From Candidatus Yonathbacteria bacterium (GTDB lineage Bacteria > Patescibacteriota > Minisyncoccia > Phycocordibacterales > JACNGX01): a stretch of 64,000 bases of DNA. This document shows, piece by piece, positions 29,742-50,835 of the stretch. The translations under genes were made by a program, and so were the position numbers. The notes under the pieces are model-generated. The model was not told the origin of the DNA and did no database searches. It saw only the letters and a list, made by a program, of their open reading frames with translations. Where the stretch lies: positions 11,769 to 75,768 of the forward strand of contig JAAXWR010000001.1 in assembly GCA_013334825.1 (NCBI GenBank), read 5' to 3'. Within the stretch, counting starts at the first letter, position 1. Every line of letters starts with the position of its first letter.

Positions 29742-30126
29742 TTAATGAGAAGAAAGAGATTGAATAAGTGCATTTAACATTTTTTCAATCTCTGTTATTT
29801 TTGAAATAATTTGCTCATAGTCACTATCTTTTATAAAAGATAATTCTTTTGCGAGGATAATTTCAGTTTTCAATTCAGCAGCTGAGCCATATGCGATACG
29901 AAGAAACTGTGTAAAGTCTTTTTTTTGTACCGCGACACTGTCCCTCGGCAATATTGGAAGAAATTGAAATTGCTGCCCGTTTTATTTGAGAGATCAGTCC
30001 GAATCTTTCATCAAGAGGAAAATATTTTGTTACTGCGTAAACTTCTTTTGCGAGCTGAATGCCTTTTTGCCATACCAAGAGATCTTGATATGAGATACTG
30101 CGTTTATTGTTTAGATACTCAGGCAT
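29742..30126 (-). pseudogene. four-helix-bundle protein (TIGR02436 family), copy 3, frameshifted
   Basis: Two overlapping ORFs in different frames (29875..30126 and 29742..29951) together cover one family member: 'LLVWQKGIQLAKEVYAVTKYFPLDERFGLISQIKRAAISISSNIAEGQCRG' plus 'FTQFLRIAYGSAAELKTEIILAKEL'. Confidence 0.65.
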
Positions 30127-30171
30127 ATATGTTATGGAGTTTTGTTAACCATCTTTTTGGATATAGGGTGT

Positions 30172-30234
30172 GGGGCAAGCGTACGTATTCGTTATTCGTA
30201 AGCATTCTTGAAACTGACAACTTGAAACTCGTTC
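30172..30234 (+). repeat. module A copy at the 3' end of ftsK
   Basis: 'ggggcaagcgtacgtattcgttattcgtaagcattcttgaaactgacaacttgaaactcg'. Confidence 0.8.
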
Positions 30235-32549: not shown

Positions 32550-32599
32550 ATCATGATACCATAAATAGGGAAGAGAATGAAAAAACAGTGTTATCCGTT

Positions 32600-32785
32600 T
32601 TCGCCCGTCATCCCGAGCTCCACGCCTTGCCGAAGCCTTGGCGAAGGAAGGTAATGTAAGATTTAGAGTTGCAAGTCGCCAAAACGTTAGGTTAAACCTA
32701 GCGGCGCTCCGCTAGGTTTAACCTAACGTTTTTATTCGTATATTCGTTCGTAAGCATTCTTGAAACTGACAACTTGAAACTCATC
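32600..32785 (+). repeat. composite intergenic element copy 3 (B + C + A)
   Basis: 'cgtcatcccgagctccacgccttgccgaagccttggcgaaggaagg', then 'ttaggttaaacctagcggcgctccgctaggtttaacctaa', then the ATTCGTA array. Confidence 0.8.
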
Positions 32786-33894: not shown

Positions 33895-34380
33895 ACTCGT
33901 TCGTCATCCATTCCAGTCTGTCATCCCGGGCTCCGTGCCTTGCCGAAGCCTTGGCGAAGGAAGGTGACACGGGATCCAGAGTCGTCAGTTTCATCCATCT
34001 TAGTTTAGTTGTATTCGTACATTCGTACGTATTCGTTATTCGTAACCATTCTTGAAACTCGTCATGGAACTCGTTTCATTGACTTTATACCATAAAAAAA
34101 CTATAATAAAAGGAGATATTTTGTTGTTTAAAAACCACATCATTTTCGTGTCATAACAAACTCGTTTCATCATTCGTCGAGTCGTCCTTGAGAGTCTGTC
34201 GTTCTGAACTTTTTACCTTCCCGAAGCCTTGGCGAGGGAAGGTGATTCAGGATCCAGAGTCATCAGTTTCATCTATCGTAGTCTAGTCGTATTCGTACAT
34301 TCGTACGTATTCGTTATTCGTAAGCATTCTTGAAACTTGAAACTTGAAACTGACAACTGACAACTCGTCTTCATTGCACA
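33895..34380 (+). repeat. tandem array: B-A, then B-A composite elements (copies 4 and 5)
   Basis: B copies at about 33895-33990 and 34190-34285. A copies at 34008-34075 and 34288-34375 (the latter with CTTGAAACT x3 and GACAACT x2). Confidence 0.8.
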
Positions 34381-34774: not shown

Positions 34775-34970
34775 CGAAGTCTGTCATCCTGAACTTTTTA
34801 CCTTGCCGAAGCCTTGGCGAAGGAAGGTGATTCAGGATCCACGGAGTCGTCCGTCGTTTCGTTTCTTGAAACTTGTCCGTCCCGCCCTTTCTTAAGAAAG
34901 GGCGGGACGGACCCGCGCGCTCTGCGTAGCAGAGACGTCGCGGGAAACTGACAACTTGAAACTCGTCAAG
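34775..34970 (+). repeat. composite element copy 6 (B + 38-bp GC palindrome + hairpin + partial A)
   Basis: 'gtcatcctgaactttttaccttgccgaagccttggcgaaggaaggtgattcaggatcc', then 'gtccgtcccgccctttcttaagaaagggcgggacggac', then 'gaaactgacaacttgaaactcg'. Confidence 0.8.
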
Positions 34971-35145
34971 TCATTCGCTCATGCGGTGTCGCGATGCACA
35001 CCGAACTAATTAGTTACAGGTAAGTGTGCACGGAATCATCGACAATGTCGAAGTCGACCTTCTCCGTACACATGTGCTCTTCACCTGCGCGCGTCTCGCA
35101 AGAAACGCGCGTCCGAAGATCATCGCATTATCATCAATCTATCAT

Positions 35146-38100
35146 ATGAGTACTCAATCCAAATTCTCGAAGTTGGTTGCAGGTCTCGTGGGGTTTTCTA
35201 CAGCCTTCATGATGATCGGCACCGCTTCAGTTGCGGAAGCTGCTGCTTTGACACAGAGCCAAATTGACGCCATCGTCTCTTTGCTCCAGTCATTCGGCGC
35301 GGACTCGCAAACCATTGCGAACGTCCAAGCTTCTCTTTCAGGTGGCACTCCGACCGGCGGTTCTACTACCGGCGGAACCACAACAGGTACGTGTGCGTAC
35401 ACATTCGCCACGAACTTGAAACAAGGTATGACAAGCACCGATGTGATGAACCTCCAAAAGGTTCTGAACAAAAACGCTGCCACCCAAGTTGCCGCCACGG
35501 GCGTCGGCTCAGCGGGTAATGAATCCACGTACTTTGGTGCAATGACCAAAGCCGCCGTTGTAAAGTTCCAAGAACTTTACGCAGCTGACATTCTTACACC
35601 GGTCGGTTTGACCGCGGGTAACGGATATGTCGGTGCGGGCACACGTGCCAAATTGAACGCGGTATGCGCGGGTGGCTCCACAACAGGTGGTTCCACTACG
35701 ACCGGTACAGGCGTGACGGTTTCTTCCGCCACCCAGCCGGCAAACTCGCTCGCGATTGAAAACGCGGCAAATCTTCCGTTTACCAAATTTACGCTCACCA
35801 ACAACGGTTCGTCCGATGCAACGGTGAACAGCGTAACAGTTGAACTCCAAGGTTTGGCTCAAAAGAGCGCGTTTGACAGCGTTGTCCTCTTGGACAATGA
35901 TGGTCAACGCATCGGTCGCGCGCGTTCGTTGAATTCCAACGATCAAGCGACCATCGGCGAAGCAGTCGTCATCAAGGCGGGTGCTTCCAAAACATTCACC
36001 GTCGCTGCAAATATGGATGCAGACCTTGCTTCTGAAGCAGGTGAAGTCGCCAATTTTGCGGTTGTTGCCGTGAATACGAGTGCAACCGTTTCTGGTTCAC
36101 TCCCGATCGTCGGTGCAAGCCACACAACTAACGCGACACTCGCGATGGGAACGGCTGTTATCGATGAAGGTTCCAACCAACCGAATGACAACGATGACGT
36201 TGAAGTTGGTGACGAGAAAGAAGTTCTCGCCTCTGTTCAAGTTGAAGCTGGTTCTGCTGAAGACGTTTCTGTCAAGAGCATCCGCTTCTACCAAACAGGT
36301 TCCGTTTCTTCCTCTGACCTTTCAGGTTTGAAGATTGAAGCAGATGGCGATGACTACACCGTTTCTGTATCATCTGACGGCAAGTACTACACCGCTACTT
36401 TTGGAAATGGTATCACCATTGAAGAAGGTCGTGATTTGGACTTCAAGCTCGTTGGAGATATTGACTCCGGTTCTGGTCGCACGATTGAATTCGAAATCGA
36501 TGAAAACACTGACGTCGTTGTTGTAGGCAAGACCTATGGCTACGGTATCACCCCGACGGGAACATTTACGTCTTCAACACTCGATATTACGGGTGGAGAA
36601 TTCCAATCGTTCTCTCGCGACAATGAAACATCTTCGGCAAATGTTGCCGTTGAGAAGTCTGGTGAAGTGCTCGGTGGATTCCTTATCGAACTCACTGGTG
36701 AAGCCATCAATGTTGATGACATGACGATCTATGTTGATCTTACCAATGCCGGTGGCGCAGCTGCCGATGTTGCAGACATCACAAACGTCAAACTCGTTGA
36801 CGAAGACGGTACTGTCCTTGCTGGACCAGTTGATGGTGATTCCACCAACTCTGGTGCACATGAAGGTTCCATTCTCTTTACAAACGTTACTATCCCGTCC
36901 GGTGAGACTCGTCTTATCGTAACAGGAGAACTCGGTGACGCGTTTGGAACAAACGAAACTGTTATCCTTTCTACAAATCCTTCAACGGATTGGGACGATG
37001 TCCGCGGTGAAGACACCAACGATGCCGCCACCTTGCCGAACGTAACCGTAAGCGCCCACACCATGACGGTGAAAGCCGCTTCTCTTACCGTACGCAATCT
37101 TGCCACACCGGCCGCGCAAAACGTGGTTGCTGGTATGAAGGACTTCGTCTTTGCCAAGGCAGCGCTTGACGCGCAGGATTCTGGTGAAGATGTCGAAGTA
37201 ACAAGCATTACTGTTGATGTTGCAGTTGCCGATGACGCCACTGTTGGTGATCTCGACAATATGGAAATCTGGACATTGAAGTCCGACGGTTCCCTCAATG
37301 TCAAAGTATCTGATACCAAGAACATCACCGCAGCTTCAACTGCATTCGATCTCCGCAGCGACATCGTTGTTGCCAAGGGAACGACTGTAAACGTTGCAAT
37401 CGTTGCCGACATTTCAAGCGGTGCGACACGTAACGGTGATGCAGGTGATACATGGACTGTTGACGTTTCTGACGCTGAAGCCGAAGGTGCCACATCCAAT
37501 GTGGATGCCGACCCGTCTTCAATCGGTGGTACGAACGGTCAAGCAATGACGCTTGCCGAGAATGCTACTGTTGCAGTAACTATCGACTCTACATCTCCTG
37601 AAGCAACCTTCGTACTTGATGGTTCTGAAACAACTCTTGCAGTCTTCCAATTCGAAGAAACTGCGAACGTTGAAGATGTTAACCTCGAGAAGATTACCCT
37701 CGATGTAAACCCAGGTGTTGATGATGCCGTGGATACCTACAAGGTATACAAGGGCTCAACACTTGTTGGTGAAGCTTCCGGCGGTTCTGCTGACGTTGCA
37801 ATCACATTGAACAATGTGGTCATCGCCAAGAACAGCAAGGTTGATCTCACCATCAAGGGTGTGATGGCAGATGTTGACGGAACAACCGTACAAAACGGTG
37901 ATACTGTCGCCCTCTACGTCACTGCGTACGAAGCAACAGGCAAGACTTCTGGAACGTCTCTTGACTCTTCCGCGAACTCTTCCTCTGCTGCAACGCACAC
38001 CTTGTACGAAGCATACCCGACCGTTGCCTTTGACAACACGGGTGTGAGCACGACTCTTGTGAACAATGCCAATCATTTGCTCGCCAAGATCAAAGTAACG

Positions 38101-38517
38101 AACAATGGTTCTGAAGATGTCACGTTCAACAACGCTGACACGAACACATTGACCGTTCAGATCAACAGCGTCAGCGATGACTCTGACACTGCCGCAGCCG
38201 AAGCGCTTTCTCTCCGCGATGAGAATGGAAACATTCTTGACAGCAACCAGACGTTCAACAACGTCACTGGTGCGGAAGTAACCTTCAACCTCGACGGTGC
38301 CTACACGGCAGGACTCACAGTTGGTCCGAACTCGTCCAAGTACTTCTACCTCTACGCTGATACCTCTGATCATGAAGATGACGGAGACAGCATCCAGGTA
38401 TGGCTTGACGACACCGCTGGTGACCTCGTCTTCGGTATTGACAGCACGGGTGCTTACAACGCTGGAGCGGTTGCCTTCAAGGGTGATCTCTACGGTCCGA
38501 CCCACGTCAATCCGTAA
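35146..38517 (+). CDS. S-layer-like major surface protein with peptidoglycan-binding (PG_binding_1) domain
   Basis: Signal peptide 'MSTQSKFSKLVAGLVGFSTAFMMIGTASVAEAA'. 'LKQGMTSTDVMNLQKVLN...YFGAMTKAAVVKFQELY' is a PGBD fold. Over 900 aa of T/S/G/D/V-rich beta repeats. Markedly more GC-rich, with strong codon bias typical of highly expressed genes. Confidence 0.7.
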   Translation: MSTQSKFSKLVAGLVGFSTAFMMIGTASVAEAAALTQSQIDAIVSLLQSFGADSQTIANVQASLSGGTPTGGSTTGGTTTGTCAYTFATNLKQGMTSTDVMNLQKVLNKNAATQVAATGVGSAGNESTYFGAMTKAAVVKFQELYAADILTPVGLTAGNGYVGAGTRAKLNAVCAGGSTTGGSTTTGTGVTVSSATQPANSLAIENAANLPFTKFTLTNNGSSDATVNSVTVELQGLAQKSAFDSVVLLDNDGQRIGRARSLNSNDQATIGEAVVIKAGASKTFTVAANMDADLASEAGEVANFAVVAVNTSATVSGSLPIVGASHTTNATLAMGTAVIDEGSNQPNDNDDVEVGDEKEVLASVQVEAGSAEDVSVKSIRFYQTGSVSSSDLSGLKIEADGDDYTVSVSSDGKYYTATFGNGITIEEGRDLDFKLVGDIDSGSGRTIEFEIDENTDVVVVGKTYGYGITPTGTFTSSTLDITGGEFQSFSRDNETSSANVAVEKSGEVLGGFLIELTGEAINVDDMTIYVDLTNAGGAAADVADITNVKLVDEDGTVLAGPVDGDSTNSGAHEGSILFTNVTIPSGETRLIVTGELGDAFGTNETVILSTNPSTDWDDVRGEDTNDAATLPNVTVSAHTMTVKAASLTVRNLATPAAQNVVAGMKDFVFAKAALDAQDSGEDVEVTSITVDVAVADDATVGDLDNMEIWTLKSDGSLNVKVSDTKNITAASTAFDLRSDIVVAKGTTVNVAIVADISSGATRNGDAGDTWTVDVSDAEAEGATSNVDADPSSIGGTNGQAMTLAENATVAVTIDSTSPEATFVLDGSETTLAVFQFEETANVEDVNLEKITLDVNPGVDDAVDTYKVYKGSTLVGEASGGSADVAITLNNVVIAKNSKVDLTIKGVMADVDGTTVQNGDTVALYVTAYEATGKTSGTSLDSSANSSSAATHTLYEAYPTVAFDNTGVSTTLVNNANHLLAKIKVTNNGSEDVTFNNADTNTLTVQINSVSDDSDTAAAEALSLRDENGNILDSNQTFNNVTGAEVTFNLDGAYTAGLTVGPNSSKYFYLYADTSDHEDDGDSIQVWLDDTAGDLVFGIDSTGAYNAGAVAFKGDLYGPTHVNP

Positions 38518-38606: not shown

Positions 38607-38635
38607 CAAAAACCCCCGCAAGGGGGTTTTTGTTA
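38607..38635 (+). terminator. rho-independent terminator after S-layer-like gene
   Basis: AAAAACCCCC-GCAA-GGGGGTTTTTGTT. Confidence 0.8.
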
Positions 38636-38639
38636 TGTC

Positions 38640-38895
38640 CCAATCTGCCATACCAAAGCCCACACCAACTCTTCCAACAGTCTGTTTCCCGTACCAAGGT
38701 TAAACCTTGGTAGCGTCGTCCGTCATCCTGAAAAAAGGAGTGTCATCCTGAACTCGATTCAGGATCCACGAAGTCGTCAGTTTCATCTATCGTAGTCTAG
38801 TCGTATTCGTACATTCCCCAGCACCACGTAGGGCGCGGGGCAGGCGTACGTATTCGTTATTCGTTTCCCGTATCAAGGTTAAACTTTGGTAAAAA
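38640..38895 (+). repeat. composite element copy 7 (REP2-like + REP1 + B + A + REP1-like)
   Basis: 'ccgtaccaaggttaaaccttggtagcg' at 38689, B module from 38715, A module from 38800. Confidence 0.75.
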
Positions 38896-38960: not shown

Positions 38961-39413
38961 TTGCAAATCATGGATAATCTATTGTTGCTCGCTGTACAGG
39001 CGATTGTTGGAGGTATTCTCTATTGTGTGAGATTCCCTCAAAAAAAGTATGACATGGCACGCGTTATTACGTATGCCATAGTGTACGTTGCAATGGTCGG
39101 GGAAGCCCTGGGACTTCTCTTTGGACTTTTTTTAGAGGGGGCAATTTTTTCCTCCATGACAATGTTGCTCTTTATCGTCTTCGCATTTTCAATGCGGGGA
39201 TGGGACATTGTCGCCAACGATATCATGGCGAAAACGGGTGCAAATTTTTTTTCCGTGCATATGTGCATGGGAAGCATCGCACTCATTTCGCTCACTGGAA
39301 CTATCCTTGGTCCGGTGATCATGATTATGTTTGCAGCAATTTTTACAGGGGCCATCGTGTTTTTCATGGTGATGCTCTCTGCATTTATCGCCCCGCATAT
39401 TGCGGGGAAGTGA
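38961..39413 (+). CDS. hypothetical 4-TM membrane protein
   Basis: 150 aa, four hydrophobic helices. Same terminator-plus-repeat module downstream as the S-layer gene. Confidence 0.5.
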   Translation: MQIMDNLLLLAVQAIVGGILYCVRFPQKKYDMARVITYAIVYVAMVGEALGLLFGLFLEGAIFSSMTMLLFIVFAFSMRGWDIVANDIMAKTGANFFSVHMCMGSIALISLTGTILGPVIMIMFAAIFTGAIVFFMVMLSAFIAPHIAGK

Positions 39414-39427: not shown

Positions 39428-39452
39428 CAAACCCCCGTCCGCGGGGGTTTTT
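39428..39452 (+). terminator. rho-independent terminator
   Basis: AAACCCCC-GTCCGC-GGGGGTTTTTGTT. Shares the 'gggggtttttgttatgtcccaa' tail with 38620-38645. Confidence 0.8.
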
Positions 39453-39640
39453 GTTATGTCCCAACCCGCAATACCAACATTTCTGTACCAACTCTTAATG
39501 TTGGTACAGAGTTGGTATCCTATACCAAGGTTAAACCTCGGGAGTATCTTCTGTCATCCTGAACTTTTTACCTTGCTGAAGCCTTGGCGAAGGAAGGTGA
39601 TTCAGGATCTATGGAGCCGTCCGTCATCTGTTCGTCTCTC
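39452..39640 (+). repeat. composite element copy 8 (REP2 + REP1 + B)
   Basis: 'gtaccaactcttaatgttggtac' palindrome, then 'tataccaaggttaaacctcggg', then 'gtcatcctgaactttttaccttgctgaagccttggcgaaggaaggtgattcaggatc'. Confidence 0.8.
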
Positions 39641-39755
39641 GACATTCGACACTTGTAACTCGTCTTCCGCGCTTCGTTATACACACCCACACCATCCACA
39701 AAATAAATGAGCAGCGATATACTAGAAGTATTATTCGTCGTTATGGTATCTCCCT

Positions 39756-42700
39756 ATGACTACGTATCATCTCACATCTTTTGCTACAATAATCCGTCGT
39801 ATGACAGGTGTTTTCTCGACCGTTTTCGCGGTCTTTTTTATTGTTGCCTTTGGTGTATACAGACCGGGGATATTGGTATATGCGCAATCATCTGATGAGG
39901 TATCTTTTTCTGTGGAAACATTTGGTGCATTTCTTGTTTCAGAATCTTCAGCATTAATCGAGTGTCATATTTCTGGAGCGATACCTGATGAAATACACAT
40001 GTTTGTTCTTCAAAAAGATGAGACATCATCTCAAGAGATAGAGTCAGTTTTTGTTGAGAGATCTATATATCAGTCACCGTTGTTGTATATACAAGCAAAT
40101 CATTCTTATACCTATCAGTGTATTGGGCGAAGTGATGCGGGGGAAGTACGTGGAGAAGAAAAGACATTCATGACGAAAGGGAATGCAACCGTTCTGGCGA
40201 TAACGCATCAAGGAAAGGAAATTCACGAAGGAGATATTCTTTATACGGAAGATTTTCTCTTCCCGACCGATTCGTATGGCATGGTAATGCAGATGCAATT
40301 TTATTGGCCAGTCTGGGTTGAAAATGGGAGAACACTTTTTGCATTGGTAAGGGGTGTCCCAGGACACCTTGAAGGGGGGAGTCCTCTTGATGATGTAAAT
40401 TATGTGTCCAGTATGCAGGTGTGGGGTGAGGGAGTAAACGGTATTACAAAATATATGGGTCAATACGGGTATGATAATAACAAAGTTTCAATGTTAGCTG
40501 ATGCACGTACGATGCCATCTCTTTACACATTCTTCATTGCTGAACGTCCTCCGAGAGACCAATATGTTACAGATGATGAAATAATGACATGGTTCGCTTC
40601 AGGGGGAAGTGAAGGTGTTGCTCCTATACGCCATGCCACAATGACTTTTGAGTATCGTGGTACACGTCGTCACGATACACCTCCAACCCTCAACTATATC
40701 CCTAATGACTCCTATGCCACCGACGCACACATAGCAGGTAGGGGAGTTGAACCCAACAAAGGTGTCGCGGACAAAGACCCGCTCACGTTCGCCACTCTCT
40801 ATACTGACCAAGACGGTGACACCCCCGCTTACGTTCGTCTATGGGTCAAAGACGCGACAGGCACAGACACCTTTTATGACATGACACGCGAAACGGGCGC
40901 TCACGCGCCCGCCCCCCACACCGACGGCAATACCCAAAACGGCGAATGGTACACATTCACTGGCACATTCCCCAAAGGTATATACTCCTACGCATTTCTT
41001 ACTGCCGACACACATGACGGTAACCCCGGTGAAGAAGTGTCATTCCCCGCGCCACTTTCAGGGACACCCACAGACAATCCGCTTTCCTTCACCACCGGCT
41101 ACAGCAATGTCGCATTCCTGCCGGGGATTGGTGGCAGTCGTCTGTATGCGGATTATGGCGTAGGTGAAATGGTGTGGGAACCAAATGACCTTGCGGATGT
41201 TGCGGAAATTCGTTTGGATACAGACACGCATGAAAGCGCCAATCCGTCTATTGTCGTGTCGGGTATCACCGATGAGATACTCCTTCGTCTTGATGCGTGG
41301 CCAACAACGAATGTTTACAAAACGTTCATGCAGTTCATGGATACACAAGTCGTCGGTGCAGGTATCATCAACACATGGAAGCCACTTGCCTATGACTGGC
41401 GCTTAGGTCTTGATACACTTGTTACGCGTGGAACACATATTGATACACGAAATGGCAATGACGTCATTTCATATAACATAACGACAGAGGGGACAAGTAC
41501 TCCGTATCTTCTTTCAGAACTGCGTCATCTCGCCGACACATCTGATTCGGGCAAGGTGTCTCTCATCGCCCATAGTAATGGCGGGCTCCTCGCCAAATAT
41601 ATACTGAAGCATCTCGTGGATACACACGACCCGCTTCTTGACCGTATTGATACTGTCATGCTTGTCGCTTCGCCACAGTGGGGCACACCAGAAGCTGCCG
41701 CGACACTGTTGCATGGCACAACAAAGATTGGCAAAGGCATGGAACGCGACACCGCCGAAACACTGCCGTCCGCGTATCACTTATTGCCGTCAGAAGCGTA
41801 TCTCGAACATGTGCAAACGCCCGTTTTTGTTTTTGACCCCGAAGTATCTTCCATCTCCGACCTTGTTGATTTCGCGGGTCGCGCAATCGGGGGAAGTGGT
41901 GCGTATGAAGCGTTCACTGACTTTATGACGGGACATGCGGGGACATGGACAGAACCAATCGATGTTGATGCCCCCAATGTCCTTGATACAGAACTTCTTG
42001 CCTATGCCAAAGATGTACACGAAGCACTCGACACGTGGACACCACCCGCGCATGTACGAGTTGTACAAATCGCCGGATGGGGTGTTGATACCATACGAGG
42101 CATCGCATACGACAATTGCGATATTCCGTTTTGTCCGCAAACACTGAGCACACTCGACAGGACATTGCAAAAGACAACACTCGGCGACGGCACCGTCGTT
42201 CTTCCCAGCGCGATTGCGATGTCTGGTGGTGTGGAGACGTATTTTTTGAATTTAGATGCATATAATCATTCGGGACTTCTTTATAGTACTCGAAACAGAA
42301 AACATGCTGGAATCTTAGAAGTTGATATCTTAAAAGACTTTCTCAAAAATATCTTTACAAATACAGACCTTCTTCCCGCATATATTTCTACAATAGAGCC
42401 AACGTCTCCTTTGGCAAGCAAAGCATTACATTTCACCATGCACTCTCCCGTTGCCGTGCATCTCTATGACACGGAAGGAAATCATACAGGCATCATCCCC
42501 AATCCCAATAGTGCATCGGACATTCGCGTCTATGAAGAAAACATTCCCAATTCATATTACGAAGAATGGGGTGAAACGAAATACATCGGTGCATCAGATG
42601 ATGGTCCAATCACACTCGTCCTTGATGGCGAAGGAAGTGGTACCTTTACACTTGAGATAGAAGAAACGCAAGGGAACGAGACAACAGCATATACCGTCTT

Positions 42701-43178
42701 TACAGACATTCCTGTCTCTACAACAAGCGCGGGATCACTCACGATTGCCTCTGTATCTGATGTTGGCGCTCTCACGCTCGACAACAATGGGGACGGTACT
42801 CCCGACGTCTATGCATTCACCGACGAGATGAAAGAGGTGATTGATTACGGTATACTAAAAGAAGCGGTACAGGCACTTTCTTCAAATCAAAAGAAAACGC
42901 TTTTGACACAAATCACCCTCATGGAAGCACTTCACAAACGTGGCGCCGTCATCGCCGAAAAAGCACTTCTTCGTGTATTTGATAAGCAAATTGAGACATT
43001 GGTGAATCCAAAACTTCCCGCAAAGGCACGTATAACCATGGCAGAAAAGGTAAAAATTGACGCGATTGTTACTGTATTATTTGAACAACTTGAGGAACCT
43101 GTAAAAAAGAGAAAGAACGATATCCAAGAAAACATAAAGAAATTGAGAGAACGGATAGTGAATGAATTGCGTAAATAA
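39756..43178 (+). CDS. large secreted protein with LCAT-family (lecithin:cholesterol acyltransferase-like) alpha/beta-hydrolase lipase/phospholipase domain
   Basis: Signal/TM N-terminus. 'PGIGGSRLYADYG', 'YDWRLGLD' (LCAT YDWRL motif) and 'VSLIAHSNGGLLAKYIL' (GxSxG nucleophile elbow). Flanking beta domains. A helical K-rich C-terminal tail about 75 aa long. Confidence 0.7.
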   Translation: MTTYHLTSFATIIRRMTGVFSTVFAVFFIVAFGVYRPGILVYAQSSDEVSFSVETFGAFLVSESSALIECHISGAIPDEIHMFVLQKDETSSQEIESVFVERSIYQSPLLYIQANHSYTYQCIGRSDAGEVRGEEKTFMTKGNATVLAITHQGKEIHEGDILYTEDFLFPTDSYGMVMQMQFYWPVWVENGRTLFALVRGVPGHLEGGSPLDDVNYVSSMQVWGEGVNGITKYMGQYGYDNNKVSMLADARTMPSLYTFFIAERPPRDQYVTDDEIMTWFASGGSEGVAPIRHATMTFEYRGTRRHDTPPTLNYIPNDSYATDAHIAGRGVEPNKGVADKDPLTFATLYTDQDGDTPAYVRLWVKDATGTDTFYDMTRETGAHAPAPHTDGNTQNGEWYTFTGTFPKGIYSYAFLTADTHDGNPGEEVSFPAPLSGTPTDNPLSFTTGYSNVAFLPGIGGSRLYADYGVGEMVWEPNDLADVAEIRLDTDTHESANPSIVVSGITDEILLRLDAWPTTNVYKTFMQFMDTQVVGAGIINTWKPLAYDWRLGLDTLVTRGTHIDTRNGNDVISYNITTEGTSTPYLLSELRHLADTSDSGKVSLIAHSNGGLLAKYILKHLVDTHDPLLDRIDTVMLVASPQWGTPEAAATLLHGTTKIGKGMERDTAETLPSAYHLLPSEAYLEHVQTPVFVFDPEVSSISDLVDFAGRAIGGSGAYEAFTDFMTGHAGTWTEPIDVDAPNVLDTELLAYAKDVHEALDTWTPPAHVRVVQIAGWGVDTIRGIAYDNCDIPFCPQTLSTLDRTLQKTTLGDGTVVLPSAIAMSGGVETYFLNLDAYNHSGLLYSTRNRKHAGILEVDILKDFLKNIFTNTDLLPAYISTIEPTSPLASKALHFTMHSPVAVHLYDTEGNHTGIIPNPNSASDIRVYEENIPNSYYEEWGETKYIGASDDGPITLVLDGEGSGTFTLEIEETQGNETTAYTVFTDIPVSTTSAGSLTIASVSDVGALTLDNNGDGTPDVYAFTDEMKEVIDYGILKEAVQALSSNQKKTLLTQITLMEALHKRGAVIAEKALLRVFDKQIETLVNPKLPAKARITMAEKVKIDAIVTVLFEQLEEPVKKRKNDIQENIKKLRERIVNELRK

Positions 43179-43206
43179 ATGTATTTAATCATTTTATTAT
43201 TTTCTT

Positions 43207-43641
43207 ATGCAGAAAAAACAAAAAGGAATTATCATTATTATAGGATCATTTTTTTTAGGACTCTTTCTTACAAGTTTGTATAATCTTCACATATGTCAGT
43301 CGCGGGGTGTCTTTTGTGGAGATATTCTTGGTGAAATGATTGGGCAGACGTTGGGATTCTTCTCCCTTGCCGCACTCCTTCCCGTCATCATCCTCTCTTT
43401 TATGAAAGAAGAGGTCTATGAAAGATGGTGGAAATTCGCAAAAAAATATCTTATCATTTCCGCAATTCTTATCGTCATTACTCCTTCAACAAGTAGTGGT
43501 ATGCTTGGGGGTCTTGGCGCGGGTGGGGGATATGACCGCGAAGGAATGATATGGTTTCTCACGGGACTCTTTTTCGTCATTTCCGTGATCCTTATTCCTG
43601 TCAAAGCGTGGCAATTACGAAACACGTCATCGAAAAAATAA
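43207..43641 (+). CDS. small 4-TM membrane protein, paralog 1
   Basis: Shares 'WWKFAKKYLIISAILIV...GGLGAGGGYDRE...WFLTGLFFVISVILIPVKAW' with 43693..44178. More distantly related to 44447..44905. Confidence 0.6.
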   Translation: MQKKQKGIIIIIGSFFLGLFLTSLYNLHICQSRGVFCGDILGEMIGQTLGFFSLAALLPVIILSFMKEEVYERWWKFAKKYLIISAILIVITPSTSSGMLGGLGAGGGYDREGMIWFLTGLFFVISVILIPVKAWQLRNTSSKK

Positions 43642-43676
43642 ACTATTTCCGTGATGATTGATGTCCTTATTGTTTC

Positions 43677-43702
43677 GTACCAAGGTTAAACCTTGGTAGC
43701 GT
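43677..43702. repeat. REP1 palindrome CGTACCAAGGTTAAACCTTGGTAGCG
   Basis: Seen directly, between paralogs 1 and 2. Confidence 0.8.
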
Positions 43703-44178
43703 TATTACCAATTTATTTTTTTACCAATATGAAATTAAAACCTCTTTCTAACAGACATTCTGGCTATTTGATGTTGATATCTCTTGTTTTGTTTTTTGCG
43801 GGAATGGTTACAGGGGCTCCTCAGTGGTTCGGGCTGTGTCGGATGTTTGATTTTGGGTGTTATGACTTCTATAGATATCATTTTAGTTATCTCTGGTGGT
43901 TCTCCATCTTTATGCCCGTTCCGTTCCTTCTTGGTCTCATGTCATGGGTAAAAAACAAATCTGAAAAAGTATTCATGGCATGGTGGAAATTTGCTCGCGT
44001 CTATATACCCATAGCGCTCATCCTTATCGTCCTCTCTGACGGAGGCGGAGCACTCAGTGGACTTGGCGCCGGAGGTGGTTTTGACCGTGAGATAACTATC
44101 TGGGTTACTGCAGTTATTTTCTTTCTCATTACCTTCATCCTCCTTCCACTCAAATTCAAAACATATAAAAACGCTTAA
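43693..44178 (+). CDS. small 4-TM membrane protein, paralog 2
   Basis: 'WWKFARVYIPIALILIVLSDGGGALSGLGAGGGFDREITIW'. Confidence 0.6.
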   Translation: MVALLPIYFFTNMKLKPLSNRHSGYLMLISLVLFFAGMVTGAPQWFGLCRMFDFGCYDFYRYHFSYLWWFSIFMPVPFLLGLMSWVKNKSEKVFMAWWKFARVYIPIALILIVLSDGGGALSGLGAGGGFDREITIWVTAVIFFLITFILLPLKFKTYKNA

Positions 44179-44184
44179 CTGAAA

Positions 44185-44442
44185 AAAGCGCCGTCATCGC
44201 CGAAAAAGCACTTCTCTTTGCAATAAAAAAAGAAATAGAGAAACATGATTGTGAATTAGTAAAAGTAAAGAAAGGAAGGAAGCCAGTATGTATTGAAAAA
44301 ACAGATGTGCTTGAGCTTTCTGCCCTTCTTGATGCCATGATAGAGAATATAGAGACACCAATAAAAGAAAGAAGAGTTGAATTGAGAAAAAATATTAGTA
44401 ATATAATCAATAATCTAAAGAAATTATTCAAGTAATACTTAT
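44185..44442 (+). other. orphan start-less C-terminal module homologous to the 3' end of the lipase gene
   Basis: Frame reads 'AVIAEKALLFAIKKEIEKHDCELVKVKK...NNLKKLFK*'. It begins with the same 28 nt (gcgccgtcatcgccgaaaaagcacttct) as 42944-42972 inside 39756..43178, then diverges. No start codon. Confidence 0.55.
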
Positions 44443-44446
44443 TTTT

Positions 44447-44905
44447 ATGAAACATAAAAAACAACTGAAAATTATTGAAGGACTTTTGTTTATCTCTTTC
44501 ATTTTTATTGGTGGGATTAGATTTTGGAATGAGGTTTTTGTGAATGACTGTATGTCAATATACAGAAATATCTTTCGCTGTGCTGATGTTTCTCTTTTTG
44601 GTGAACACGCTGAGTATATGCTCATATCTCTTTCTTTGTTTTTCTCCATCTTACCACTCCTCTTTCTAAAAGAGACGATATATAATATTTGGAAAAATTT
44701 TGCAGTTGTTGCTTTTCCTCTCCTTTTGCTTCTCGTCTTCACAACACCAGAATCAAGTGGGGGATTGTTCGGACACACAAGTCTCTTTATTCGTGAAGAG
44801 ATTGCTCTCTACTGCTCCATCCTCTTTCTCATCCTTTCCTACATCATTATTGCCGTACAAGCGTGGAGACACGGGGGGAATAAAAGCACTTCTTCGTGTA
44901 TTTAA
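44447..44905 (+). CDS. small 4-TM membrane protein, paralog 3 (divergent)
   Basis: 'WKNFAVVAFPLLLLLVFTTPESSGGLFGH...IIIAVQAWRHGG' parallels paralogs 1 and 2. The 3' end overlaps a second duplicated fragment of the lipase gene tail. Confidence 0.5.
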   Translation: MKHKKQLKIIEGLLFISFIFIGGIRFWNEVFVNDCMSIYRNIFRCADVSLFGEHAEYMLISLSLFFSILPLLFLKETIYNIWKNFAVVAFPLLLLLVFTTPESSGGLFGHTSLFIREEIALYCSILFLILSYIIIAVQAWRHGGNKSTSSCI

Positions 44906-44950
44906 AAAACACATTGAGACATTGGTGAATCCAAAACTTCCCGCATTTCC
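44880..44950 (+). other. second duplicated fragment of the lipase gene 3' region (about 70 nt)
   Basis: 'aaagcacttcttcgtgtatttaaaaaacacattgagacattggtgaatccaaaacttcccgca' matches 42960-43025 (encodes KALLRVF.K.IETLVNPKLPA). Confidence 0.7.
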
Positions 44951-45175
44951 GTACCAAGGTTTTCCGTACCAAGGTTAAACCTTGGTAGCGCCTCACCCAT
45001 CTTTGTATGTCAAGTATGTTTACGCAGGTTAAACCTTGGTATAAATACCAAGGTTTAACCTGCGTAAACTATCGCGAATCATTTTCGTCTTCTGTACCAA
45101 GGTTAAACCTCGGTGACGGATTTTTGTCTGTCAACATGTTGAATGTTTATACCAAGGTTTAACCTTGGTATAATG
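44945..45175. repeat. cluster of 5 REP1 palindromes immediately upstream of the RAYT gene
   Basis: Copies at about 44950, 44965, 45018-45071 (nested 52-bp perfect palindrome GTTTACGCAGGTTAAACCTTGGTATAAATACCAAGGTTTAACCTGCGTAAAC), 45093 and 45147. The last carries a TATAAT -10 eight bp before the ATG. Confidence 0.85.
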
Positions 45176-45180
45176 CGTGT

Positions 45181-45900
45181 ATGTTAAGAGATGCTCCCTT
45201 TGTTGAAGGAGAAATATACCATCTATATACGCGTGGTGTTGAAAAAAGAGAGATATTTCTTTCTGATTTTGATCGTAAGAGATTTCAATTATCATTATTT
45301 CTTTCAAATAACAATCATGCAGGGATGCAGATAAGAAATACAATAAAGATTTTTGAAGATAATGGCGCCACTAGTTGGGGAAAGATTTATCAAGAATACG
45401 AAAAAGGGGAGCCATTTGTGGATATTCTCGCCTATGTTCTTATGCCTAATCATTTTCACATACTCGTAAAAGAGCATATACCTGAGGGTGGTGGAATTTC
45501 AAAGTTTATGCAGAAAATCATGAATAGTCATACAGGATATTTTAATAAAGCTAATGAGCGTACAGGTGCATTATTTGAAGGGACGTTCAAGAGTAAACAT
45601 GTAAATGACGAGGCATATTTTCGTTGGTTGTTTTCATATATTCATCTCAATCCACTCAAGTTAATTGAACCCGGATGGCGGGAAGGTATTATTCGCGATA
45701 TGCCCCGCGCGATCCAATTTTTGAATAATTACGCGTGGTCAAGTTTCCCCGACTACGCCGGAGTGGAACGCCCCGAAGGTGTTATTCTTACCAAAGATGC
45801 TCTGCCAGAATATGTTACATTAGTAAAAGACGTTGAAGGTCTTATTGCTGAACGTGCGACACATATACCAAGTGATACAAGGCGTATGCGTTTTTCATGA
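45181..45900 (+). CDS. REP-associated tyrosine transposase (RAYT; IS200/IS605 Y1 HUH transposase-like)
   Basis: 'ILAYVLMPNHFHILVKEHIPEGGGISKFMQKI' holds the HUH motif (HFH). 'YFRWLFSYIHLNPLKLIEPGW...YAWSSFPDY' holds the catalytic Tyr motif. This closely parallels E. coli YafM 'LPEHMHCIWTLPEGDDDFS...YIYINPVKHGW...WPFSSF'. Confidence 0.85.
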   Translation: MLRDAPFVEGEIYHLYTRGVEKREIFLSDFDRKRFQLSLFLSNNNHAGMQIRNTIKIFEDNGATSWGKIYQEYEKGEPFVDILAYVLMPNHFHILVKEHIPEGGGISKFMQKIMNSHTGYFNKANERTGALFEGTFKSKHVNDEAYFRWLFSYIHLNPLKLIEPGWREGIIRDMPRAIQFLNNYAWSSFPDYAGVERPEGVILTKDALPEYVTLVKDVEGLIAERATHIPSDTRRMRFS

Positions 45901-47753: not shown

Positions 47754-48242
47754 ATGGCAATTACACAACAAAAGAAAGAGACGATTGTTGGTTCGTTAAA
47801 GGATGGTTTGAAGGACGCACAATCCGCGGTATTCGTTGGATTTCGTGGACTTTCCGTTGCTGATACAACCGAACTTCGTCGAGCATTGCGTGCTGAAGGT
47901 GTGAAGTATACCGTTGCCAAGAAGACGCTCATGCGTCGGGCACTTGAAGAAACCGCCCCTAAGGGTGAACTTCCTGAACTTCCTGGAGAAGTGGCTATCG
48001 CGTATGGAACCGATCTTCTCACGCCTGCTCGTGAAGTATATGCCTTTGAAAAAAGGTTTAAAGAAAAAGTAAAGATTCTCGGAGGTATCTTTGATGGTAC
48101 GTACAAGAATCAGGCAGACATGTTGTCTATCGCGGCAATTCCTTCACCGGAAGTTCTCCGTGGCATGTTTGTCAATGTTATCAACAGCCCGATTCAAGGT
48201 CTGGTCATTGCACTAGATCAAATCGCGCAAAAGAAAGGATAA
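47754..48242 (+). CDS. rplJ: 50S ribosomal protein L10
   Basis: 'KKETIVGSLKDGLKDAQSAVFVGFRGLSVADTTELRRALRAEGVKYTVAKKTL' is canonical L10. Confidence 0.9.
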   Translation: MAITQQKKETIVGSLKDGLKDAQSAVFVGFRGLSVADTTELRRALRAEGVKYTVAKKTLMRRALEETAPKGELPELPGEVAIAYGTDLLTPAREVYAFEKRFKEKVKILGGIFDGTYKNQADMLSIAAIPSPEVLRGMFVNVINSPIQGLVIALDQIAQKKG

Positions 48243-48308
48243 GGATATACGTACGTATGTGCGTATAACCAACGCTTATTTATCTCATTTATTATTTATA
48301 CATATTGT

Positions 48309-48815
48309 ATGGCAGATGAACTATTGAATGATACAGTGGATACAACTGAAGAAGTATCTACTCCGGAAGTTGTTACAGAAACAGCAGCTCCCGCCGCTCC
48401 GGTGCAAGACGCTCCTGTTGCCGATCTTGGCGAAGAGGTGGAAGTTCCGGAAAAATTTAAAAAGATTGTTTCGGCAATCGAAGATATGTCCGTGCTTGAT
48501 TTGCACGAATTGGTAAAAGTATTTGAAAAGAAATTTGGTGTATCTGCTGCCGCAGTCGCGGTTGCTGGTGCTGGCGCAGGTGCAGCTGATGCTGCTGATG
48601 AGCAGACATCATTCACTGTTGAGCTTTCTGATGCGGGGGCATCCAAGATTGCCGTCATCAAGGTGGTGAAAGAAGCTCTTGGCCTCGGTCTTAAGGAAGC
48701 GAAAGATATGGTAGATGCCGCTCCGGCCGAACTCAAGAAAGATATGAAAAAGGAAGACGCCGAAGCACTCAAGAAACAACTTGAAGAAGCAGGTGCAAAA
48801 GTGAACTTGAAATAA
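48309..48815 (+). CDS. rplL: 50S ribosomal protein L7/L12 with about 45-aa acidic N-terminal extension
   Basis: '[30 protein letters not shown]', an Ala/Gly hinge, and '[27 protein letters not shown]...[10 protein letters not shown]' are canonical. The only upstream in-frame ATG gives the acidic N-terminal extension. Confidence 0.85.
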
Positions 48816-48918: not shown

Positions 48919-50835
48919 GTGTATATGAAATATCCTTTTCTTTCTGTCCTGCGAATAGTAAGTATATGTTTCTTTGTGCTGACTTGCAGTGTCCCTATCA
49001 CATTTGCCCAAACAGAATCTTCGCGTTCATACACATATGAACATATTGCCACCATGTTTACACTTCATGCGGACGCCAGTATGTCGGTGGAAGAGACACA
49101 GACGTATCGTTTCGTAGGGGAGTATCATCAAGGGTGGCGAGATATTCCGCGTAGCGGATATGATGATATTTCCGTTCGAGGTGTGGCGGATGCGGACACC
49201 GGAGAACTATACATGTATAGTTCGTCGCGTCTAGAAAAGACTGATCCAGCAAACTGGGGCAAGTACACAACATTCATACAAGACGGCGCAACGGTGATTG
49301 AATGGTATTACAATGCAAAAGACACAGAAAAAACGTTCGTACTTTCGTATGACGTAACAGGTGTTGTTGGTTTTTATTCTGATCATGATGAATTGTACTG
49401 GAATCTGTTTACTGACTATGATGTCCCTGTGCATATCGCCGAAGCGACGGTCATACTTCCTACTGAAGCATCGCTCGCGTCTCTTACGACGATGGCGTAT
49501 GTATCAGGAGGAACACTCGAGCATGCACGTGTCGTGGATGGACGTACAATTAATTACATATTTAGAGAGCTTGCACCAGATGCCGATGTTACGATTGCTC
49601 CGGGATGGCAAAAAGATATTATCTCGGCCTCGGCATATCGCATGTCATGGTTCGCACGCAATTGGGGATATGTTGGCACATGGATTGTAAGTATACTTTT
49701 TCCCATCGTGCTGTTTATCAGATGGTATCTCAATGAACGATACAAAAAGGGAAGAGGAACGATTATTCCACAGTACGAACCGCCGCGAAATCTTCGTCCA
49801 GCGATGGCAGATATTGTCATGCATGAACATCTCTCACAAAAAGCATGGTCAGCGACCATTGTCGATTTGGCAGTGCGTGGGTATTGTTCTATAGAGGAAA
49901 TACCTCTATCGGAGTTAGCACAACGTGTCCTTTGGGGTATCGCCAGTGTATCACTCGGTATCTTTTCTCTCGTTATATGGTTGTCTGACCCATCCCTTTT
50001 GTGGATTGTTGCTATACCACTTATGGTGATTATCTTTTTATCTTTCAAACAAAAAACAGGAACACCGACAAGTGTTGGCACTGAATACATTATCCGTCGA
50101 AAAGAGGATGGAGATATATCTCTTCTTGAAACATATGAGACAGATGTGTTAAATGCACTCTTTTCTGGTACAGACACATTTTCCACAAAAGAGATGAAAC
50201 GAAACGTAACAAAAGCACAGACACTCTCAAAAAGACTTATTGAAATTGCAAAAAATGTGGCGAAAGAGACTGCCGATGATACACGTGTATATGAAGTAGG
50301 TTTTCGTACATGGCAAAAGATACTCCCTCTGCTTATTGTTGTCGGCGTGGTGTTATACATATTCATCATCCCTGCCGGCATTCCTCACTGGGTGATATTC
50401 TTCCTTGTACTTATGTACGCAGGTGCGACTGTCTATATATATGATACATATAACCCACGTCTCAATGCCGAGGGGCATGTTCTTCGCGAAGAGATTCTCG
50501 GTTTTAAGATGTATCTTGAAACGGCCGAGCGATATCGTTTAGAGAATTTGACTCCTGAAACATTTGAAAAGTTTTTACCCTATGCCATGATATTTGGAGT
50601 TGAGAAAAAATGGGGAAAGGCATTTGAACATATTGCCATGGATGCTCCTCATTGGTATGTATCGCACAGTGTCGTTGCGGGCAGTATGTCGAATACACCA
50701 TTTTCTCCCAGTGCGTTTTCTGCATCGTTTGGTACCGCATTTACATCGTCATTTGCTTCGTCAGGAGGGGGAGGTGCAGGAGGTGGCGGTGGAGCTGGCG
50801 GCGGGGGAGGTGGCGGAGGTGGCGGCGCAAGCTAG
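48919..50835 (+). CDS. DUF2207 domain-containing membrane protein
   Basis: Signal peptide, then a beta-rich ectodomain, then TM helices, then the characteristic Gly-only tail 'SSGGGGAGGGGGAGGGGGGGGGGAS'. Confidence 0.65.
   Translation: MYMKYPFLSVLRIVSICFFVLTCSVPITFAQTESSRSYTYEHIATMFTLHADASMSVEETQTYRFVGEYHQGWRDIPRSGYDDISVRGVADADTGELYMYSSSRLEKTDPANWGKYTTFIQDGATVIEWYYNAKDTEKTFVLSYDVTGVVGFYSDHDELYWNLFTDYDVPVHIAEATVILPTEASLASLTTMAYVSGGTLEHARVVDGRTINYIFRELAPDADVTIAPGWQKDIISASAYRMSWFARNWGYVGTWIVSILFPIVLFIRWYLNERYKKGRGTIIPQYEPPRNLRPAMADIVMHEHLSQKAWSATIVDLAVRGYCSIEEIPLSELAQRVLWGIASVSLGIFSLVIWLSDPSLLWIVAIPLMVIIFLSFKQKTGTPTSVGTEYIIRRKEDGDISLLETYETDVLNALFSGTDTFSTKEMKRNVTKAQTLSKRLIEIAKNVAKETADDTRVYEVGFRTWQKILPLLIVVGVVLYIFIIPAGIPHWVIFFLVLMYAGATVYIYDTYNPRLNAEGHVLREEILGFKMYLETAERYRLENLTPETFEKFLPYAMIFGVEKKWGKAFEHIAMDAPHWYVSHSVVAGSMSNTPFSPSAFSASFGTAFTSSFASSGGGGAGGGGGAGGGGGGGGGGAS

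Follow-up and report, generated by a model that had tools for sequence, protein, structure and literature searches.

A predicted exported lipase of the LCAT fold, its four-helix membrane partner and recombining start-less lipase fragments in Patescibacteria

Polymorphic toxin systems, exemplified by CdiA-CT/CdiI and Rhs-CT/RhsI, carry orphan modules of C-terminal segment (CT) and immunity gene (Zhang et al. 2012, PMC3482391; Jamet and Nassif 2015, PMC4436062). A second point of comparison is given by TslA and TslM of Staphylococcus aureus, reverse lipase toxins of the type VIIb secretion system (T7SSb), in which a lipase domain precedes a C-terminal helical domain and immunity genes lie in tandem arrays; their loci are recombination hotspots that can keep the small genes even where the toxin gene is cut short or missing (PMC13560087). 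Here we describe a locus in a 64,000-nucleotide stretch, hereafter the window, from a Candidatus Yonathbacteria bacterium (GCA_013334825.1, contig JAAXWR010000001.1, positions 11,769 to 75,768). It comprises the gene of a large exported lipase (lipase1), three genes for small proteins with four transmembrane helices (4-TM; TM1, TM2 and TM3) and two start-less fragments of lipase 3′ ends (orphans B and C), and it adjoins a cluster of repetitive extragenic palindromes (REPs) and a gene resembling those of REP-associated tyrosine transposases (RAYTs). Every gene of this region lies on the + strand. Lipase1 is residue-for-residue equal to a hypothetical protein of a Candidatus Yonathbacteria metagenome-assembled genome (Parcubacteria/Patescibacteria; GCA_013335985.1, contig JAAXUO010000004). 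Judged from its sequence, the logic of the locus appears to be a variation on the polymorphic effector/immunity theme, built around a partner family that has no name. Below, labels of the form L### denote homologous loci or contigs of relatives, and P#### individual homologous proteins.

Lipase1 is encoded at 39756-43178. Its 1140 residues matched the Pfam LCAT family (PF02450) over residues 594-788 with 26.4 bits against a gathering cut-off of 21 (E 5.2e-6), and PF02450 is also precomputed for most lipase1 homologues; an LCAT-type catalytic signature, which the original prediction had read from the sequence without database searches, was thus borne out by a profile search of the hydrolase domain. 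In an alignment of 28 family sequences, Y546-D-W-R549 (41391-41402), H606-S607-x-G-G, G810-D811 and H850 were invariant. Residue S607 (41574-41576) lies in the context AHSNGG and D811 (42186-42188) in GDGTV; with H850 (42303-42305) they make up a GxSxG-type elbow and a Ser-Asp-His triad. A PDB search with the lipase1 sequence alone returned nothing significant. By Foldseek, the top PDB matches of its AlphaFold2 model were lysosomal phospholipase A2 (LPLA2) entries 4x90 and 4x97 (E 2.9e-10 and 9.7e-10), with TM-scores on target of 0.66-0.68. LCAT-family enzymes are phospholipase A/acyltransferases. On the strength of sequence and predicted fold, lipase1 is a new member of the LCAT/LPLA2 fold family and a predicted phospholipase A/acyltransferase. 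With LPLA2 (PLA2G15, PF02450) it shares the α/β-hydrolase fold, the triad, the xHSxGG elbow and the YDWR motif, 4x90 being the best structural match. Unlike LPLA2, to which it is only 15-16% identical, it comes from bacteria of the candidate phyla radiation (CPR), carries its catalytic domain within a 1140-residue multidomain surface protein, and is known here from sequence and predicted fold.

The model was confident from around residue 340 onward. Residues 1-45 constitute a signal peptide or anchor, and the N-terminus, MTTYHL...RRMTGVFSTVFAVFFIVAFGV...VYA|QS, looks like a Sec signal as judged from the sequence alone; a variable region of low model confidence follows. The confident portion begins with an immunoglobulin-like domain (residues 340-430), after which come the LCAT-like α/β-hydrolase domain that holds the invariant residues and the fold match (440-870; 41073-42365), a β-sandwich with strands modelled at a pLDDT of 80-90 (889-1020; 42420-42815) and a helical tail (1023-1139; 42822-43175). 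Helices were modelled in the tail at 1046-1061, 1065-1081 and 1095-1139, the last of these a charged helix of 45 residues. We found 35 lipase homologues, all of them in Patescibacteria, in which the N-terminal modules vary (parallel β-helix, choice-of-anchor and others) ahead of a conserved core; several genomes hold up to four lipase loci.

The Pfam results for lipase1 and its homologues contained no dedicated trafficking domain of the type V, VI (T6SS) or VII (T7SS) secretion systems or the like; the only export feature present is the N-terminal hydrophobic signal. A scan of four lipase tails against Pfam at E≤10 gave only noise, with no FIMAH, LXG or enzyme-family match, and we therefore assign the tail to no family. 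Neither the tail nor the neighbouring genes matched LXG or WXG100, so the hallmark of a T7SS reverse lipase is lacking; the neighbouring FtsK carries a gamma domain and is thus a true FtsK. The likeness to TslA/TslM lies in the combination of a lipase, a C-terminal helical domain and arrays of non-identical small membrane-associated proteins. The differences are several: the staphylococcal lipases belong to a different family, their immunity proteins are DUF576 lipoproteins and single-pass DUF1433 proteins, and they need the T7SS and WXG100/Lap partners that bind the helical domain, whereas here we found a Sec signal, no such partner genes and a four-helix partner without a Pfam model.

Downstream of lipase1 lie TM1 (144 residues, 43207-43641), TM2 (149 residues, 43729-44178) and TM3 (152 residues, 44447-44905), the three membrane proteins that the original prediction had regarded as paralogues. 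They are mutually 31-36% identical, and the model of the 4-TM protein has four helices (pLDDT 86). Two motifs proposed as common to all three, WWKFA and GLGAGGG(Y/F)DRE, are present in TM1 and TM2, while TM3 has IWKNFA and GHTSLFIREE; the start of TM2, formerly placed at a TTG at 43693, is likelier the ATG at 43729, which gives 149 residues as called in the source assembly. No model in Pfam, NCBIfam or PADLOC matched the three proteins, ten sampled members of the wider family had no Pfam match, and a Foldseek search of the PDB with the 4-TM model returned no fold match and no known transporter. By the positive-inside rule, both ends of the protein are predicted to be cytoplasmic, leaving outside two short loops of about 12 and 17 residues, one with a Cys-x8-Cys arrangement and the other Gly-rich and closing in a near-invariant R120-E121.

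To gauge how widely the pair occurs, we fetched 26 species-representative Patescibacteria loci with the lipase as query, tail-less lipases included, and searched them with a hidden Markov model (HMM) of the 4-TM family. In 25 of the 26, an open reading frame (ORF) of the family starts within about 150 nt of the lipase stop codon. A full HMMER scan of 1.84 billion representatives yielded at least 1,468 clusters (50% identity) at E≤1e-3 and 553 at E≤1e-10, the best 150 matches being mostly 130-160 residues long. A metagenome scan anchored on the 4-TM family returned at least 11 loci, including one contig (L061) that has a 4-TM gene without a lipase within about 1 kb upstream. Given the 25/26 pairing and the size of this unnamed family, the sequence data show that lipase and 4-TM protein are a conserved, unnamed two-gene module across Patescibacteria. 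We did not find a description of the pair, or of the orphan arrays treated below, for Patescibacteria in the searchable literature.

Phospholipase effectors of the T6SS (Tle) offer a further parallel. Their Tli immunity proteins, which are either periplasmic or lipoproteins, bind the catalytic domain; the effectors are delivered by the T6SS, and multiple immunity paralogues are common. Tle/Tli pairs and the present pair both consist of a phospholipase and an adjacent envelope-located protein, which in Tle/Tli is protective; Tli proteins, however, have no sequence or fold relation to the 4-TM family.

Among the partners in the window, TM2 is of the most conserved type, found immediately after the lipase in L005, L006, L007, L014, L026 and L050. 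The ratio of non-synonymous to synonymous divergence (dN/dS) was 0.06 for TM2 against L007 and 0.16 for TM3 against L043. TM1 is absent from a strain 89% identical to ours (L007/L008/L009). In L002 (3502-3914), the TM1 orthologue is frameshifted inside a run of Gly codons and the TM3 orthologue is reduced to its C-terminal 69 residues, and this type of decay is in the same state in three assemblies (also L003, L004 and L015).

The 3′ end of the lipase1 gene was originally thought to recur twice downstream as copies of its last 100 nt. Two recurrences exist, one of 28 nt (42943-42970 and 44188-44215, 28/28 identical) and one of 64 nt (42959-43022 and 44882-44945, 94% identical), and locating them by nucleotide comparison defined the shared junction; their source is not the last 100 nt but a segment 157-236 nt upstream of the stop codon, where the penultimate tail helix starts. 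Each segment is confined to its two sites within the window (shuffled sequences lead one to expect 0). Generic REP-associated sequence, which the original prediction had named as a refuting outcome, can be ruled out as the identity of the repeats: within the window they are restricted to the lipase and the orphans, and other genomes have homologous sequence in their lipase tails. Throughout the clade, tails and orphans have in common a junction motif, H-x-R-G-A/N-V-I-A-E/A-K-A, and it is here that orphans and mosaic breakpoints begin.

Orphan B (44169-44435) is an open frame of 88 codons with no ATG, GTG or TTG until codon 46 or so. Its translation contains an 81-codon homologue of the lipase tail, in the lipase frame, running from A1064-V-I-A-E-K to the stop; it corresponds to tail helices 2-3 and the terminal helix (tail HMM, E 2e-18) and has a Cys-Cys insertion of its own. 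Orphan C (44882-44945) is the 64-nt copy of 42959-43022, truncated on its 3′ side by a REP. Where it starts, the last residues of TM3 are rewritten, its orthologues terminating in QAWKTRKK. Short third fragments like orphan C also follow TM3 in L014, L043 and L044.

For the origin of orphan B, we examined contigs that carry a 93%-identical TM3 (P0050). Lake metagenomes (L044, L046, L047 and L048) hold a second lipase paralogue, lipase2, which is about 40% identical to lipase1 over the last 380 residues, has kept the catalytic Asp and His and ends in a tail of B′ type. Downstream lie, in order, a fourth type of 4-TM gene (TM4), a REP, a B-type orphan of 97 codons, TM3, another REP and a short stub of tail sequence. 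The orphan B and TM3 unit of the window is 91% identical in nucleotides to the lake unit, and orphan B is 78% identical in amino acids and 91% in nucleotides to the lipase2 tail of L043, where it is joined to a lipase body. No lipase2 body occurs in the 64 kb of the window. By sequence, orphan B and the lipase2-type TM3 are the 3′ end of the module of a second lipase paralogue whose body is present in sister populations; this origin and the phylum-wide pairing both go beyond the original prediction. A related difference between strains lies further upstream: window positions 29203-32596 are homologous to L043 1644-5042 (Glucodextran_B-like, bAvd-like and FtsK genes), directly upstream of which L043 has the lipase2-TM3 unit; the same site in the window has a REP (29005) and no lipase2, a strain-level rearrangement.

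Start-less or truncated lipase 3′ fragments, each directly before a 4-TM gene, recur in several independent lineages, as detected with the tail and lipase HMMs. Within the clade of the window they occur in L002, L007, L014, L050 and L052, and elsewhere in L013, L020, L032, L033, L034, L044 and L060. Their 5′ boundaries differ, giving lengths from 62 to 428 codons: 106 in L002/L015, 87 in L014 (which has a further 13-codon stub after its TM3), 138 in L050, 313 in L013 (upstream of the full gene), 282 and 62 in the two fragments of L020, 216 in L032, 176 in L033, 97 in L044 and 428 in L060; L052 has two fragments, and that of L034 runs off the contig end. Longer fragments often begin near the start of the β-sandwich (HMM positions 817-866 in L013, L020, L032 and L033). 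Identity between a fragment and the full lipase of the same locus spans 31% to 87%, from which we conclude that some are recent duplicates and others derive from a different paralogue or donor.

Comparison of close relatives provided direct evidence of recombination between these fragments and expressed genes. Contig L043 equals L044 minus a clean deletion between two direct repeats of about 230 nt, namely tail B′ and orphan B, with flanks 98.4% and 99.9% identical. As a result, the lipase2 body in L043 is fused to the orphan cassette of L044 and is then followed by TM3, an assembly-level case of a structural variant that joins a lipase body to an orphan tail. A second case is the strain of L007/L008/L009, which is about 89% identical to the window across lipase1. 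The alignment extends to 42993, after which that strain has a different tail and passes straight into TM2 without TM1; it resumes at a strain-level mosaic breakpoint near 43702 and diverges after 44373. Four independent assemblies agree on the junction between TM2 and the orphan. Between the window and L007, the lipase body has a dS of 0.35 and a dN of 0.05, whereas the tail has proportions of synonymous and non-synonymous differences (pS and pN) of 0.83 and 0.35. Because the tail is saturated at synonymous sites while the body is not, we attribute it to replacement of the tail allele rather than to divergence in place.

Lipase1 itself bears a mark of such exchange. At 42924-42973, the junction with a 45-nt conversion patch, its sequence matches the lipase2/orphan type and not its own orthologue, and L044 and L048 align to the window there by BLAST at 88-90% over 52 nt. 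After the patch, lipase1 switches to a tail of A type, the first 64 nt of which are duplicated as orphan C. L007 has a start-less orphan that over 284 nt matches the lipase2 tail and TM4 start of L044 with 100% identity. The orphan of L002, of the CAKAKREWQRKRC type, differs from the expressed L014/L026 tails by a dN of 0.16-0.19 and from the tail of its own locus by a pN of 0.35, with a dN of 0.33 between the lipase bodies; what is an orphan in one genome thus serves as the expressed tail in another.

Taken together, sequence comparison makes an architecture like that of polymorphic effectors, with recombination between orphans and expressed genes, very probable. The original prediction had proposed this architecture, and its junction, divergent tails, downstream small genes, orphan units and recombination all held up, though the variable module proved not to be a toxin domain. 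As in CdiA and Rhs systems, a large exported protein has a conserved body, a short junction and a divergent C-terminal segment, a small gene follows each variant, and start-less orphan units of 3′ end and small gene recombine with the main gene, deletion fusion included. In contrast to those systems, the variable segment is a helical tail of about 65-80 residues with the enzyme domain upstream of the junction, the only export feature is the Sec signal in place of dedicated delivery, tail and partner are not strictly cognate, the immunity role of the partner is putative, and some orphans are long fragments of a different lipase paralogue.

Silent-cassette antigenic variation, which the original prediction also called to mind, would make of this locus a programmed system in the manner of pilE/pilS or vlsE, with one expression site, promoterless cassettes and frequent directed conversion of a surface tail within a clone. 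The layout has some of the expected features, having one expressed gene with start-less partial copies in the same orientation, a short conversion tract in that gene and no terminator-like site within the array. The cassettes number only two, however, one of them a stub of 64 nt; neither a recombination signal nor an enzyme dedicated to the task is evident; events of the deletion type are irreversible; and the variants were seen between populations rather than within a clone. With nothing to show programmed switching at high frequency, we regard this explanation as very unlikely.

A simpler possibility is that the orphans are inert passengers of tandem duplication and partial deletion, perhaps aided by REPs and RAYT, the 4-TM genes being a tandem family and the open frames reflecting recency or copying. 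Tandem duplication with a left breakpoint inside the lipase 3′ end would yield just such fragments, the orphans have neither start codons nor a constant frame relative to TM2, REPs adjoin several orphan boundaries and some partner genes are decaying. Yet the position of the orphan is shared by lineages whose lipases are only 54% identical, and the frames stay open, with a dN/dS of about 0.26 (range about 0.2-0.3) and conserved Cys and heptad residues. The start-less copies of the window and L007 differ by 11 synonymous and 13 non-synonymous changes, a departure from the neutral expectation (binomial P of about 0.005). Moreover, orphan sequence has entered the expressed lipase1 of the window, and in the natural deletion variant L043 an orphan becomes the expressed tail. 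The conversion patch and the deletion fusion mean that the orphans have evolutionary consequences even without direct selection, and we therefore see inert debris as a possible explanation, though on balance an unlikely one.

Through frameshifting or read-through of the stop codon, orphan B might extend TM2 at its C-terminus, for its frame opens 7 nt before the TM2 stop, and in L014 one stop codon is all that separates TM2 from an orphan in the same frame. In the window, L002 and L007, however, the orphan lies in the -1 frame relative to TM2; a slippery heptamer of the form X_XXY_YYZ is absent from the short overlap, as read from the sequences of the window and L002; and an orphan produced in this way would be cytoplasmic, whereas the homologous tail is extracytoplasmic. 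We reject recoding, which we judge extremely improbable, on the inconsistent frame relation and the missing slippery site. For the same two reasons, we attribute the apparent constraint on the orphans to repeated copying from expressed genes rather than to translation.

How might these features fit together? In the reading that we favour, a Sec-exported phospholipase/acyltransferase of LCAT/LPLA2 type is paired with a four-helix membrane protein of about 145 residues encoded directly downstream. The lipase, with its variable adhesin-like N-terminal region, would act extracellularly on the membranes of hosts or competitors, and the 4-TM protein, in the producer's own membrane, would shield that membrane from it. 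Self-protection would matter here because these organisms cannot make or repair lipids themselves and would build that membrane from scavenged ones (PMC11665869). As the comparison of loci shows, homologous recombination at the conserved junction, within the tails and at REP-bearing intergenic sites duplicates, deletes and swaps units of lipase 3′ end and 4-TM gene, with displaced 3′ ends persisting as start-less orphans. Orphan B and TM3 are the remnant of a lipase2 module and orphan C is a fragment of the current lipase1 tail type. By exchanging sequence with expressed lipases through gene conversion and deletion fusion, the orphans serve as a de facto reservoir of tails and partner genes, and the extra 4-TM genes may be retained as protection against variant lipases in the population. 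As a whole, this combination of module, effector with self-protection and recombining array seems to us evenly balanced between right and wrong. The immunity-like role of the 4-TM protein, proposed by analogy, falls somewhat short of that and is put forward tentatively; in its favour, intact, non-identical partner genes are kept beside lipase fragments, a pattern also known from the immunity arrays of T7SS lipase toxins (PMC13560087).

Several observations weigh against the reading with self-protection. What varies is a non-catalytic helical tail, some 65-80 residues long and rich in K, R and E, and the catalytic domain lies upstream of the junction, which casts doubt on the need for a new immunity gene after a tail swap. 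With two short loops of about 12 and 17 residues, the outside surface of the 4-TM protein offers little for inhibiting a large enzyme. Some partner copies are decaying, as in L002, where TM1 is frameshifted and TM3 truncated, and the dN/dS signal of the orphans can arise by copying from expressed genes without orphan function. A full-length lipase2 was not recovered: every lipase2 contig breaks inside the gene, and a homology search gave only distant partial proteins. Nor does a given tail type always go with the same 4-TM type. In L005 the P0002-type tail stands before a TM2-type gene; in L052, and probably in L051, whose contig starts within the upstream ORF, it stands before a TM1-type gene. 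The gene after a tail with CxKAKREWQ is TM2 in L014 and L026 and a truncated TM3 in L002. These counter-examples led us to reject strict cognate pairing; from the sequences, tail type and partner type recombine independently. Weak evidence for the immunity-like role comes from 27 lipase/partner pairs, across which 4-TM similarity correlated with that of the catalytic domain (r 0.69, partial r 0.48) more than with that of the C-terminal module (r 0.57, partial r 0.06), a comparison confounded by phylogeny and domain length. Since partner similarity tracks the catalytic domain and not the C-terminal module, it suggests, as a weak pointer, a link of the partner to the enzyme itself and not to the tail.

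This result also bears on a different role for the partner, in which the 4-TM protein would dock or anchor an otherwise unanchored secreted lipase at the cell surface through the β-sandwich or tail, with tail and partner diversifying together under host or phage pressure. The lipase signal looks cleavable and there is no other anchor; the homologue P0031 has a hydrophobic C-terminal helix in place of the tail; duplicated units always consist of a tail piece and a 4-TM gene; and a Cys pair in both B-type tails and outside loop 1 of the 4-TM protein is consistent with extracytoplasmic exposure. Apart from the correlation just described and the loose pairing of types, docking is at odds with the 4-TM genes that follow lipases without a detectable helical tail (L021, L027, L029, L035, L036 and L039), and the window retains intact extra 4-TM genes that, as anchors with no lipase to hold, would serve no obvious purpose. 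We consider docking unlikely.

Patescibacteria, which make up a large share of bacterial diversity, live on other cells, and their supply of lipids suggests a further possibility. The lipase might release or transfer acyl chains or lysolipids from the host, with the 4-TM protein as acceptor, flippase or uptake part and the orphans as by-products of duplication. According to a 2024 review, Patescibacteria are without lipid synthesis and no mechanism of lipid uptake or breakdown has been identified in them (PMC11665869); lysolipids are enriched in these bacteria (PMC11665869; see also PMC7242380). The phospholipase A/acyltransferase activity suggested by the fold match would suit such a role, as would the conservation of the pair across the phylum, with several copies per genome. 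Tail replacement, orphan arrays, pseudogenised partners and one to three variable partner copies would be unexpected of housekeeping uptake, though, the 4-TM fold matches no known transporter, and the loci often lie beside restriction-modification or other variable genes. Lipid harvesting of this kind is in our estimation distinctly unlikely. We give a similarly low rating to a bolder synthesis, in which the pair would be machinery for attacking host membranes and harvesting lipids, and the cassettes a competence-fed means of switching the surface end of the enzyme together with its partner. If true, this would place polymorphic-effector logic around a non-catalytic module and be the first cassette-variation system described in the CPR.

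Returning to the favoured pairing of effector and protective partner, an exported lipase coupled throughout the phylum with a 4-TM family that has no name and counts at least 1,468 clusters is a testable candidate for attack on host membranes or lipid harvesting that spares the producer's own. The partner, if an immunity protein, would represent a new immunity family and, if an anchor or lipid acceptor, a new piece of CPR surface biology. The orphan cassettes, fusion variants and conversion tracts show that even genomes as reduced as these evolve in the style of polymorphic effectors, here with a Sec-exported enzyme whose variable module is non-catalytic.

The REP cluster and RAYT gene that the original prediction placed next to the array were found there. 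Across the window, 11 sites carry the REP palindrome, TACCAAGGTT(T)AAACCTTGGTA. Directly upstream of the RAYT gene lie five of these (44967-45170, in a cluster spanning 44946-45170), and another is inside the array at 43678, within a palindrome at 43670-43698 between TM1 and TM2; neither the cluster nor this palindrome is assigned a strand. The RAYT-like gene (45181-45900) encodes a Y1 (IS200-like) transposase of 239 residues that matched Pfam Y1_Tnp (E 1.1e-6, 29.1 bits, cut-off 23); its match to NCBIfam REP_Tyr_transpos (E 3.4e-11, 43 bits) falls below the cut-off of 80. A RAYT homologue lies upstream of the lipase in L026 and downstream in the window. REPs occupy unit boundaries at TM1|TM2 and orphan C|RAYT in the window and at TM4|orphan B and TM3|stub in L043 and L044, and one stands directly before orphan A in L052. 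Either REPs just occupy 3′ intergenic sites, or REP/RAYT activity creates breakpoints. The arrangement resembles described REP/RAYT systems in that clusters of a 21-nt palindrome, which is also dispersed over intergenic sites, flank a Y1 (IS200-like) gene; it differs in the below-cut-off match to the NCBIfam RAYT model, and a RAYT role in the rearrangements is only suggested by the REPs at unit boundaries.

Related repeats are found elsewhere in the window. A duplicated intergenic block (38607-38781 and 39428-39624), composed of a G+C-rich terminator hairpin, a REP and a conserved motif of about 25 nt, flanks a gene for a 150-residue protein with multiple transmembrane helices (38961-39413). 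Related intergenic repeats lie at 29061-29138, 30164-30215, 34193-34369, 34777-34972, 38731-38864 and 39550-39629, and in sister-strain contigs. A second palindromic element, AAAAACACTAGGTTAAACCTAGCGG...CCGCTAGGTTTAACCTAGTGTTTTT, occurs at 24021-24075, 32681-32736 and L043 1310-1366; it is distinct from the main REP but has the core GGTTAAACC in common with it, and it truncates the tail stub after TM3 in L043 and L044.

In a simple scan of the window, a promoter-like site was found at 39695-39723 and strong terminator-like hairpins at 39429 and 46014, with none inside the array. A promoter-like site upstream and the lack of an internal hairpin are weak evidence that the lipase and 4-TM array may be a single transcription unit.

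The genes of ribosomal proteins L10 and L7/L12 lie 1-3 kb downstream of the array in the window (47754-48815), L002, L014 and L026, and provide a stable synteny anchor against which the numbers of 4-TM genes and orphan units vary. In other Yonathbacteria-like genomes the array adjoins RhuM, a type I restriction-modification system or a DpnI-like gene (L050 5665-13898; downstream of the 4-TM gene in L051 and L052), which places it there in variable, defence-type neighbourhoods. Upstream of lipase1, in a stretch of higher G+C content (0.48-0.53), 35026-38517 encodes a repeat-like exported protein of 1163 residues rich in Thr, Gly and Ala, with a weak PG_binding_1 match only; a protein of similar size lies upstream of the L014 lipase, so that this may be a conserved surface-layer neighbour. 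On the - strand at 29742-30126, a four-helix-bundle gene of 23S-rRNA-IVP or bAvd-like type is split into ORFs of 83 and 69 residues. It is intact (127 residues) in sister contigs L043-L045, and the version in the window is a frameshift or pseudogene. Beyond the ribosomal protein genes, 48919-50835 encodes a membrane protein of 638 residues that has a terminal run of about 30 Gly with some Ala.

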